Assembly: GCF_003334355.1 (NCBI RefSeq)
Contig: NZ_QOWP01000077.1
DNA from: Escherichia coli
Lineage (GTDB): Bacteria > Pseudomonadota > Gammaproteobacteria > Enterobacterales > Enterobacteriaceae
Direction: 5' to 3' (one strand)
DNA length: 2,235 nt
Under the pieces are notes generated by a model, which saw nothing but the letters and a program-made list of their open reading frames with translations, had not been told where the DNA came from and did not search any database. Position numbers and translations under genes: made by a program. Below are positions 1-2,235 of this stretch, piece by piece. Position 1 is the stretch's first letter. Each line of letters starts with the position of its first letter.

Positions 1-159
1 AAACCAGACGGGTTAACGGCAGCAAAGAACCTTGCAGAGGCGTTCGAGCATTATAACGAATGGCATCCGCATAGTGCACTGGGTTATCGCTCGCCACGGG
101 AATATCTACGGCAGCGGGCCAGTAATGGGTTAAGTGATAACAGGTGTCTGGAAATATAG
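1..159 (+). CDS. insD: IS2 transposase OrfB (InsD), C-terminal 52 codons; 5'-partial at window edge
   Basis: Open frame 1 from position 1 to TAG at 157..159; the translation carries the [18 protein letters not shown] motif. Confidence 0.8.
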
Positions 160-170
160 GGGGAAATCCA
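130..170 (+). repeat. IS2 right terminal inverted repeat (inner boundary approximate)
   Basis: Terminal sequence ends in GGGGGAAATCCA at 170, as recalled for the IS2 right end; it overlaps the OrfB stop codon. Confidence 0.65.
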
Positions 171-244
171 ATGAACACCTCCCTCTCGAGATTTTTAAAC
201 AAAGCACATTGAAAAATAAATCTCTCTGGGATTGAATTATTCAT
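171..244 (-). pseudogene. 5' stub (24 codons, MNNSIPERFIFQCALFKNLEREVF) of a small gene, probably ymgC, interrupted by IS2; the frame reads on into IS2 with no stop before the window edge
   Basis: Minus-strand ATG at 244..242 preceded by a good Shine-Dalgarno (GAGG, plus 250..253, 5-nt spacer). The position, downstream of ariR on the same strand, is where ymgC lies in the K-12 ycgZ-ymgABC operon. I cannot confirm the YmgC N-terminus from memory. Confidence 0.4.
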
Positions 245-356
245 GTCAGCCTCGTAGAAATATTAACCCAATAAAATTATGCTGTGTATAGTCTAAAGCG
301 ACAGACAAAAATAAGATGAATGAGTTTTCTATAAACTTATACTTAATAATTAGAAG

Positions 357-623
357 TTACATATCATCAGCTGTGTATCGCAACACGATTTCCAGTGTTT
401 TTCTAATCACATCAGCTTTGAGAATATCACTTGTTGTTTCCAGGGAGTGTATCAGACTTAAGATAATATTTTTATTATTAACATTATCGCCTGAAAGCAT
501 TAAATTGGTGACAGCCTGCCCTAACACTGCTGACTCTTCTTCTAACAAATTACCCGAACTGCGAAAGTAACTTGCTAACGCTTTATCAGTTATTGCATTA
601 TGAATTGTAGTATCTTCAAGCAT
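357..623 (-). CDS. ariR: AriR/YmgB, small regulator of acid resistance and biofilm (88 aa)
   Basis: Complete 88-aa ORF with Shine-Dalgarno GAGAGG (plus 629..634) 5 nt upstream of the ATG. Length, sequence and operon position match the recalled E. coli AriR. Shares the L-G-x-x-V-T...N...K...L-E pattern with the ycgZ product. Confidence 0.9.
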
Positions 624-651
624 GGTAACCTCTCATCTTACTTATGAAATT

Positions 652-924
652 TTAATGTATTCTGTTTATTTTCTTACCATTGAACATACTTTTATTGTCA
701 GCTGTCGCTGTTCTTCGGTTTGGCCCTCCTGAATCACTATTGCTAAAATCACGAATTATGCTGTCAATTAAATCGCGTCGGAAAGCATCTTCCTCAGCCG
801 ATTTCATTACGAGTAATTGCTTAATAAGAGTCTGCAATGAAAAATTTATCTTCATGCGCAGTATCTGGAGCACCGCCTGGCCAGTAATTTCATATTTTAT
901 ACGTTCATTATCAGATGTCTTCAT
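652..924 (-). CDS. ymgA: YmgA, small connector protein of the ycgZ-ymgAB operon (90 aa)
   Basis: Complete 90-aa ORF lying 42 bp downstream of ycgZ and 28 bp upstream of ariR on the same strand. Contains a GQAV motif shared with AriR. Own Shine-Dalgarno is weak (GAAG); a 4-codon overlapping upstream ORF is described in findings. Confidence 0.88.
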   Translation of the reverse strand: MKTSDNERIKYEITGQAVLQILRMKINFSLQTLIKQLLVMKSAEEDAFRRDLIDSIIRDFSNSDSGGPNRRTATADNKSMFNGKKINRIH

Positions 925-966
925 AACGACTTCATAGCTAACCTGTTAAATAATCAGGCTGTTGCA

Positions 967-1203
967 TTATTCAAAAAGCAACCCAATTAGTGCATTATAA
1001 TGTTTCTGTTCCTCTTCCCCTGTCGCTTGTTCCAGTCGGCAAAGAAGTTTGGCACAAAGCGACTTTCGACTCAGATTACGTCCATCTTTCAAAATCTCAG
1101 TCACAATTTCCCCGAGAGTTTCCTGCTGAGTAGGCAAGTTAGCTTTTGCAAAGTAACGAGTGATTGCTCCCGCAGAATCTGAAGTCACTGAATTTTGATG
1201 CAT
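967..1203 (-). CDS. ycgZ: YcgZ, first gene of the ycgZ-ymgA-ariR operon (78 aa)
   Basis: Complete 78-aa ORF with Shine-Dalgarno AGAGG (plus 1211..1215) 7 nt upstream of the ATG. Clear similarity to AriR (YF...LGEIVTEILKDGRNLSRKSLCAKLLCRLE against [29 protein letters not shown]). Divergent from bluF as in K-12. Confidence 0.9.
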   Translation of the reverse strand: MHQNSVTSDSAGAITRYFAKANLPTQQETLGEIVTEILKDGRNLSRKSLCAKLLCRLEQATGEEEQKHYNALIGLLFE

Positions 1204-1259
1204 GCTACGCCTCTGTTAAAAATGTTAATCAATGTGAAGTGAGGTAACAATAGCAAACT

Positions 1260-1278
1260 TGTACGAAATATGTGTACA
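1260..1278. promoter_or_regulatory. Inverted repeat TGTAC-N9-GTACA, candidate repressor operator
   Basis: TGTAC at 1260..1264 and GTACA at 1274..1278 are reverse complements separated by 9 bp, about 57 bp upstream of the ycgZ ATG. Confidence 0.25.
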
Positions 1279-1297
1279 GAATGATAAATTAATTTTT

Positions 1298-1316
1298 TGC
1301 AATTAGTGCTAATGCA
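1298..1316. promoter_or_regulatory. Imperfect inverted repeat TGCAATTAG-TG-CTAATGCA, candidate operator
   Basis: Left arm TGCAATTAG (1298..1306) and right arm CTAATGCA (1309..1316) are reverse complements apart from a single-base indel. Confidence 0.25.
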
Positions 1317-1516
1317 TATAAAACAATGTGTTATGATAAAAAATATTGCATCATTTAACTGACAATCTATACAAGATTTTTCGCCAACTAGTGTTCAACT
1401 TTTTCCATTTTTTATCAATGTAAAGAAACGGTTATGTTTTGGTATTAAAAGAAAGACACAAGAAGATATGTCTGTTACCGTCTTACTCTCGCCTCACCCA
1501 TTACCCTGGATTGTTA

Positions 1517-2116
1517 ATGCTTACCACCCTTATTTATCGTAGCCATATACGTGACGACGAACCTGTCAAAAAAATCGAAGAAATGGTTTCGATAGCAAAT
1601 CGCAGGAACATGCAGTCTGACGTAACAGGGATCTTACTGTTTAATGGTTCTCATTTTTTCCAGCTTCTGGAAGGTCCGGAAGAACAGGTTAAAATGATAT
1701 ATCGGGCTATATGCCAGGATCCACGGCACTATAATATTGTTGAGCTGCTGTGCGATTACGCGCCTGCTCGCCGTTTTGGCAAAGCGGGAATGGAATTATT
1801 TGATTTGCGCCTGCACGAGCGAGATGACGTTTTACAGGCCGTATTCGACAAAGGCACATCAAAATTTCAGCTAACTTATGATGACAGAGCGCTACAATTT
1901 TTTCGTACTTTTGTCCTTGCAACCGAACAATCAACCTATTTCGAGATCCCTGCCGAAGACTCCTGGCTTTTTATCGCTGACGGATCTGATAAAGAACTTG
2001 ATTCCTGTGCCCTTTCACCAACTATAAACGACCACTTTGCCTTTCATCCTATTGTCGATCCCTTATCGCGGCGGATAATCGCTTTTGAAGCCATTGTGCA
2101 AAAAAATGAAGATTGA
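1517..2116 (+). CDS. bluF: BluF/YcgF blue-light antirepressor, N-terminal 199 aa only (intact BLUF domain, EAL domain cut off just after its signature); truncated by IS3 insertion, likely pseudogene
   Basis: MLTTLIYRSHIRDDEP...GILLFNGSHFFQLLEGPEEQV is a BLUF photoreceptor signature. FHPIVDPLSRRIIAFEAIVQ corresponds to the start of an EAL domain, but the ORF stops 5 codons later at the TGA (2114..2116) that is the first triplet of an IS3-type terminal repeat. Recalled full-length BluF is about 403 aa. Start placed at 1517 rather than the track's 1439. Confidence 0.85.
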   Translation: MLTTLIYRSHIRDDEPVKKIEEMVSIANRRNMQSDVTGILLFNGSHFFQLLEGPEEQVKMIYRAICQDPRHYNIVELLCDYAPARRFGKAGMELFDLRLHERDDVLQAVFDKGTSKFQLTYDDRALQFFRTFVLATEQSTYFEIPAEDSWLFIADGSDKELDSCALSPTINDHFAFHPIVDPLSRRIIAFEAIVQKNED

Positions 2117-2152
2117 TCCTACCCACGTAATATGGACACAGGCCTAAGCGAG
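2114..2152. repeat. IS3-type terminal inverted repeat (about 39 bp from recall; inner boundary approximate)
   Basis: Starts with the TGATCC typical of IS3-family ends (5'-TG...), abutting bluF codon 199. Confidence 0.65.
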
Positions 2153-2235
2153 GTTCTGGTTTTCAAATTGTTCCGGACTGAGGCCGCCACACCAACTGTG
2201 CCGCCGCCACCGATTGTAATCACATTCGATATAAT
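2144..2235 (-). CDS. IS3-family transposase OrfB, C-terminal fragment; 5'-partial at window edge
   Basis: Minus-strand frame open from the window edge to TAG (plus 2146..2144); the translation ends ...YNRWRRHSWCGGLSPEQFENQNLA. Confidence 0.7.
   Translation of the reverse strand, partial: YIECDYNRWRRHSWCGGLSPEQFENQNLA

Follow-up and report, generated by a model that had tools for sequence, protein, structure and literature searches.

The spacer between ycgZ and bluF of Escherichia coli carries two inverted repeats, and the question raised by this locus is which of them, if either, serves as an operator for the MerR-like repressor BluR. We addressed this question in a window of 2235 bp (the whole stretch of DNA analysed), in which ariR (357..623), ymgA (652..924) and ycgZ (967..1203) lie on the minus strand and the 5' part of bluF begins on the plus strand at 1517. 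With its ATG at 1203, ycgZ comes first in the regulated ycgZ-ymgA-ariR(-ymgC) operon. bluF (ycgF; 1517..2113) encodes the BluR antagonist and is cut in the window by the end of an IS3 element. A megablast search of 5,426 complete E. coli genomes matched window positions 1..2113 at 99-100% identity with the same annotations, and these matches confirm that the region is the ycgZ/bluF divergent region named in the original prediction. The ycgZ-bluF spacer measures 313 bp (1204..1516), has a G+C content of 31% and contains both repeats.

Both ends of the window consist of insertion sequence DNA. Positions 1 to ~170 are an IS2 end that interrupts ymgC, and positions 2114..2235 are the IS3 end, which cuts bluF after approximately codon 199. 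The bluF-IS3 junction was absent from all 5,426 complete E. coli genomes. The window strain would be without the EAL domain of BluF, and is possibly Shigella-like or IS-rich. Compared with the K-12-type sequence, two bases differ near the ycgZ start, namely C for T at 1243 (-3) and C for A at 1236 (+5). Published regulation of this locus is that of K-12, a caveat for a strain with two base changes near +1 and a cut bluF; the operator and marbox discussed below are unchanged in this strain comparison.

Both inverted repeats were found in the window as originally described, at 57-113 bp upstream of the ycgZ ATG (1203, minus strand). Dyad 1 is TGTAC-N9-GTACA at 1260..1278 (TGTACGAAATATGTGTACA). 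Dyad 2 is TGCAATTAG-TG-CTAATGCA at 1298..1316 (whole repeat TGCAATTAGTGCTAATGCA; -76..-58 relative to the ycgZ transcription start), which reads TGCATTAG-CA-CTAATTGCA on the minus strand and is imperfect: one arm has 9 nt, the other 8 nt, and a single base is bulged. As judged against 2000 dinucleotide-preserving shuffles of 1204..1516, neither repeat is unusual for DNA of this composition. The interval held 7 perfect 5-bp inverted repeats whose spacer was 15 or less, versus 9.4 expected from the shuffle mean, and 47% of shuffles contained an inverted repeat with 8 or more paired bases, either perfect or singly bulged, and a loop no longer than 6. A repeat search with a 6-nt seed reported neither dyad. 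The shuffles justify the caution, attached to the original prediction, that a 5-bp dyad could arise by chance in AT-rich DNA. Thus, the evidence that bears on both repeats is conservation and published experiments, not symmetry.

Primer extension placed the ycgZ 5' end 36 nt upstream of the ATG, with an 18-bp promoter spacer (Tschowri 2012, PMC3509220). The operator mutants in Table S1 of that study are C-39A/T-38G(/G-37A), G-24A/C-21A, T-23C/A-22G/A-20G and a quintuple mutant (PMC3509220), and their primers map onto the window with C-39 at 1279, G-37 at 1277 and G-24..A-20 at 1264..1260. Together with the primer extension result, this mapping sets the transcription start of ycgZ-ymgABC at A1240 on the minus strand. 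From the -10, the +1 and an 18-bp spacer, we place the -35 hexamer TACACA at 1271..1276 (-36..-31), overlapping the upstream BluR hexamer. The extended -10 would be TGcTATTGT at 1247..1255, comprising the -10 hexamer TATTGT at 1252..1247 (-12..-7), a C at -13 and TG at -15/-14. A C at -13 is a hallmark of sigma-S promoters. An extended -10 and a -13C contact have been described for the ycgZ promoter (Kettles 2019, PMC6900184). Between the marbox and the -35 lies an A/T-rich distal UP-element half-site at 1283..1293 on the minus strand, with approximate limits taken from construct sequences; a 5-bp deletion just downstream of the marbox, in which UP-element DNA was lost, lowered sigma-38 transcription (Kettles 2019, PMC6900184). 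A consensus scan of 1150..1560 for sigma-70 promoters and terminators missed the real ycgZ promoter and returned no terminator. Where the promoter is of the sigma-S type and its spacer measures 18 bp, such a scan is uninformative.

Set on this promoter map, dyad 1 (1260..1278, minus strand) spans -38..-20 and is the published operator of BluR (YcgE). Its minus strand reads TGTACA-CATATTT-CGTACA, two TGTACA-type hexamers 13 bp apart, and its half-sites are at once a direct repeat (GTACA..GTACA) and a palindrome (TGTAC..GTACA), which fits the motif of PMC3509220. The binding data, as given in the text of that paper, consist of one DNase I-protected site overlapping the -35 and spacer; EMSA further showed that point mutations in the half-sites weaken or abolish BluR binding, and ycgZ was derepressed to the same extent by mutation of dyad 1 alone as by bluR::cat (PMC3509220). 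Every published mutated base falls in 1260..1279. The -39..-20 sequence of the window is the same as that of the K-12 operator and occupies the same place relative to +1, -35 and spacer; the published site is therefore the same locus in another strain, with no difference in the operator (PMC3509220). The operator is also invariant across the window, a K-12-type strain and two divergent E. coli strains; within-genus conservation was assessed on these three E. coli strains beyond the window, the genome scan having returned no other Escherichia species. The original prediction expected a BluR operator embedded in the ycgZ promoter, and for dyad 1 this is upheld by the published footprint, EMSA and lacZ data (PMC3509220). 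Indeed, the footprinting, EMSA and promoter-lacZ experiments it proposed had been published in 2012 and place BluR at dyad 1 (PMC3509220). A full-text literature search for BluR and TGTACA yielded no further work beyond Tschowri 2012, and Duval 2017 (PMC5491885) contained no binding-site information. Dyad 1 is the published BluR operator, with binding and regulation taken from literature on an identical sequence.

Conservation across genera supports the same assignment. We compared 52 BluF-homologue loci from species-representative genomes, plus the E. coli reference locus L001; 24 loci, L001 included, have the arrangement ycgZ <-> bluF-bluR. In ycgZ promoters of Citrobacter, Enterobacter, Atlantibacter, Erwinia, Pantoea, Kosakonia and others, the operator appears as TGTACA-N7-TGTACA (N8 in three loci); its distance to the ycgZ ATG stays at 61-71 bp, although the sequence on either side has diverged. 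A strict double hexamer was present in 20 of the 24 loci with adjacent bluR versus none of the 28 BluF-homologue loci without it (Fisher's exact p = 8e-11). Nineteen of these 20 strict matches are the promoter operator; the strict match of L009 is a distal pair, and L009, L007, L044 and L048 have a one-mismatch operator at the promoter. Conservation and co-occurrence with bluR thus mark dyad 1 as a genuine site under selection and linked to BluR, for which a pair of palindromic hexamers 13 bp apart is the better description. These comparative data add small new points to the published picture, namely the operator form TGTACA-N7-TGTACA and its tracking of bluR across Enterobacterales. Conservation had been suggested as a check on both repeats: it holds across genera for dyad 1 and fails for dyad 2, the symmetry of which is not kept.

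Two further observations came from the aligned loci. In Siccibacter and Rahnella (L028, L032-L039 and L045), ycgZ- and ariR-like genes adjoin BluF homologues, and neither bluR nor a double TGTACA motif was detected; the Rahnella loci are among the 28 without adjacent bluR. The small-protein operons in these genera must therefore be controlled differently. In addition, TTGTATAAC/TTGTATAC is conserved ~25 bp downstream from the operator centre in most non-Escherichia loci (L007-L022 and others); its counterpart in E. coli and the C. freundii group is TTGTTACC/TTGTTATAAA. This difference suggests that the -10 of those genera may sit ~8 bp further from the operator than the TATTGT of E. coli.

The operator resembles several known systems in part. 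Canonical MerR-type operators, such as those of MerR, CueR, SoxR and ZntR, have a dyad within an over-long promoter spacer, as here (18 bp). In the canonical arrangement, the dyad is centred in a spacer of 19-20 bp and the protein activates by untwisting the DNA. In contrast, the BluR dyad is centred at 1269 (~-29/-30) with its upstream arm on the -35, and BluR acts solely as a repressor, unlike the canonical activators. A MerR-type DNA-binding domain is also carried by the LitR/CarH family. Like BluR, two class II members of this family from Pseudomonas, PmlR2 and PplR1, are repressors that bind a TGTACA repeat over a -35 (TGTACA-N12-TGTACA in their case) and are removed by a separate blue-light photoreceptor (PMC9758184). 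The spacing is N12, the photoreceptor domain is LOV instead of BLUF-EAL, and the genes and hosts are others; the likeness is one of resemblance only. MlrA is a MerR-like paralogue of BluR. Both proteins use a TGTACA-type hexamer, and BluR binds the csgD site of MlrA weakly (PMC3509220). As quoted in PMC3509220 from Ogasawara 2010, the MlrA site at csgD is AAAGTTGTACA-N12-TGCACAATTTT (TGTACA-N12-TGCACA). Hexamer centres are 18 bp apart for MlrA (N12) versus 13-14 bp for BluR (N7; N8 in three loci). MlrA is an activator working from upstream; BluR, placed on the -35 and spacer, does nothing but repress.

It is possible, if somewhat doubtful, that the TetR-type regulator RcdA is the main protein at dyad 1, or a further one, in which case BluR and RcdA would compete or cooperate. 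The RcdA box TTGTnnACA contains the same TGTACA core, and three overlapping one-mismatch matches to TTGTNNACA at 1270..1281 coincide with the upstream BluR hexamer. In Shimada 2012 (PMC3535384), SELEX and DNase I experiments place RcdA at the ycgF-ycgZ spacer, with a promoter-proximal band of 36 nt containing tandem boxes, and RcdA's own operator is given as TTGTGTACAttTGTACACAA. However, one-mismatch matches to TTGTNNACA are not enriched in the window (15 observed versus 9.1 expected), the same study reports an effect of RcdA on ycgF (bluF) mRNA and not on ycgZ (PMC3535384), and the motif co-occurs with bluR, an indication that BluR is what selection acts through. The 36-nt stretch protected by RcdA may overlap dyad 1, and BluR need not be the sole protein there. 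We retain BluR as the regulator to which dyad 1 is assigned.

Dyad 2 coincides with a different kind of site. On the minus strand, 1294..1309 (-69..-54) is a marbox for MarA (and SoxS), GCACTAATTGCAAAAA, in forward orientation and centred at 1302 (-62), inside the range of ~50-70 bp upstream for class I sites; it covers 12 of the 19 bases of dyad 2. The match to the consensus GCAHWWWWTGYYAAA is 14/15 at 1309..1295, minus strand, and is the sole match to that consensus in the window at no more than one mismatch, with 0.13 expected by chance. MarA ChIP-seq assigned the marbox gcactaattgcaaaa to ycgF<>ycgZ, and SoxS was found by ChIP-exo at ycgZ as well (Sharma 2017, PMC5684230). The window 15-mer is identical to the marbox of Sharma 2017 and to the block reversed in the Kettles construct ycgZ.1inv. 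Thus, the ycgZ-ymgABC marbox of both studies is the same 15/16-mer, GCACTAATTGCAAAA(A), centred at -62 and forward (PMC5684230, PMC6900184). Compared with this published marbox, dyad 2 reaches 7 bases further upstream (1310..1316) and falls 4 bases short at the 3' end.

Function of the marbox has been established by EMSA, in vitro transcription and lacZ fusions (PMC6900184). The MarA binding site lies 62 bp upstream of the ycgZ start, and binding is lost when the marbox is mutated or truncated (Kettles 2019, PMC6900184). MarA activates ycgZ transcription dependent on sigma-70, and not that dependent on sigma-38, via W19 and the alpha-CTD, and the forward orientation and exact position of the marbox are required, an orientation that the authors consider atypical for class I (PMC6900184). 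The marbox is also needed for induction by salicylate and for inhibition of curli and biofilm (PMC6900184). Across the aligned promoters, the conserved block beneath dyad 2 is TTAGCAC-N5-TG-N-TAAAAA, and a marbox match of at least 14/15 is found in 14 of the 24 loci at a fixed 32-33 bp from the operator centre. Loci with such a match belong to Escherichia, Citrobacter, some Enterobacter, Phytobacter and Kosakonia. Within the 24-locus set, the marbox was absent from Atlantibacter, Erwinia, Pantoea and Pectobacterium. This distribution of sequences suggests that MarA/SoxS/Rob input is a later addition to an older BluR-controlled promoter.

The symmetry of dyad 2 behaves differently from the marbox beneath it. 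All 8 of 8 bases pair only in E. coli, versus 2-6 of 8 in 13 other marbox-bearing loci. Two E. coli strains, TC_EC10 and MLI109, have natural substitutions at 1314 (C>T) and 1302 (T>A) that do not compensate each other; these changes break the pairing and keep the marbox consensus. We regard the symmetry as incidental, arising from the GCA...TGC pseudo-dyad of the marbox together with the sequence TGCAT at 1316..1312, which is specific to E. coli. The site recognised by MarA is asymmetric and takes a monomer (PMC6900184), and dyad 2 was rejected as a dimer operator on the grounds that it is a MarA monomer site with E. coli-only symmetry that is broken by natural SNPs.

There is only a slim chance that dyad 2 also serves a further dimeric regulator besides MarA, such as Lrp. 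The Lrp SELEX consensus, YAGHAWATTWTDCTR, resembles TAGCA-N5-TGCTA of the dyad 2 block. Loci L004, L005 and L008 read TTAGCA-TTTTT-TGCTAA, a perfect 6-5-6 dyad that matches this consensus at 14/15 by hand count, and conservation reaches 3 bases past the 15-bp marbox core (TTA/ATA before GCA). Yet the E. coli sequence matches at only 10/15 (hand count), the 6-5-6 pairing amounts to 3-5 of 6 in most loci and 5 of 6 in E. coli, and the full 20-bp marbox AYNGCAC... already explains conservation 5' of GCA. Titles and abstracts retrieved by a ycgZ and Lrp literature search mentioned no Lrp site at ycgZ.

The original prediction offered dyad 2 as a second BluR candidate, and this part of it fails: the repeat is without GTACA, a single footprint was described, its symmetry is not conserved and it overlaps the marbox. 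A scheme in which BluR has two operators here, dyad 1 as the primary one within the promoter and dyad 2 as an auxiliary one upstream, is accordingly very improbable. Both are dyads in the right region, MerR-like proteins bind dyads, and the BluR EMSA fragment starts at 1317 and so includes dyad 2. However, the GTACA motif is absent from dyad 2, the only GTAC occurrences in the spacer being at 1261 and 1274. The 176-bp BluR footprint fragment maps to 1197..1372 with dyad 2 in its middle, and it gave one described protected site; that BluR produced no second footprint over dyad 2 is our deduction from the wording 'a protected site' in the text of PMC3509220. Moreover, point mutations that touched dyad 1 alone were enough to abolish binding and to relieve ycgZ repression as completely as bluR::cat does (PMC3509220). 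Least credible of all is that the repeats, both of which are inverted, act as nucleic-acid structure (a cruciform, RNA hairpin or terminator): they lie upstream of the ycgZ +1 (1240) and, with respect to the divergent bluF +1 (~1487), ~170-230 bp upstream, and are thus transcribed from neither mapped promoter, the scan returned no terminator-like site, and the stems are short and A/T-rich, with a 9-nt loop in dyad 1.

Collectively, these data leave us with little doubt that 1255..1320 is the upstream half of the ycgZ-ymgABC promoter and holds two characterised sites, the BluR operator and a class I marbox. Coordinates, identity with published sites, conservation and co-occurrence were established from the window, and protein binding and regulation come from the literature. 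Both sites were already known, having been mapped experimentally between 2012 and 2019, and the novelty of the finding is therefore nil. Its value lies in correction: only dyad 1 is a BluR site, and dyad 2 is part of the MarA/SoxS stress circuit, through which antibiotic stress is coupled to the suppression of biofilm. In the resulting arrangement, the elements follow one another toward ycgZ as the marbox (-69..-54), the first BluR hexamer over the -35 (-38..-33), the second hexamer, which occupies -25..-20 of the spacer, the extended -10 (C-13 included), and +1. The two TGTACA-type hexamers over the -35 and the upstream part of the 18-bp spacer are occupied by a BluR dimer, which excludes RNA polymerase, mainly its sigma-S form, from the promoter. 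Under blue light and cold, BluR is bound by the BLUF-EAL protein BluF and removed from the DNA. A MarA monomer (probably SoxS too) on the marbox contacts the alpha-CTD and increases sigma-70-dependent transcription. The UP half-site serves the sigma-S holoenzyme, with MarA providing an alternative alpha-CTD contact for the sigma-70 holoenzyme.

A new side observation concerns a third TGTACA box further upstream. In 17 of the 24 bluR-linked loci, a solitary box lies 97-105 bp (mode 102) upstream of the operator centre, against a TGTACA background of 5 occurrences in 7,269 bp. The sequence on either side of it does not align, and bluF lies anywhere between 132 and 275 bp from the box. At this distance from the operator, the TGTACA of other genera is perfect and E. 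coli has TGTATA. The degenerate E. coli box (TTGTATAGA) occupies 1366..1374 on the minus strand, with TGTATA at 1373..1368 (~-133..-128). We tentatively suggest, from its placement across genera, that this distal box (~95 bp upstream of the operator, ~-130) may be an undescribed third element that has decayed in E. coli; one possible role is that of an auxiliary operator, through which BluR or RcdA might bridge or loop the promoter. The primer used for BluR footprinting begins at 1372, inside the box, which therefore lay under the end primer. In Shimada 2012 (PMC3535384), the distal E. coli sequence is called RcdA-box-like and sits at the edge of an RcdA footprint. Finally, the 6-nt seed repeat search returned a 13-nt A/T-rich inverted repeat, 85% complementary, at 1339..1351 and 1369..1381 (AAAAATATTGCAT and ATACAAGATTTTT), the right arm of which overlaps the distal TGTATA box.
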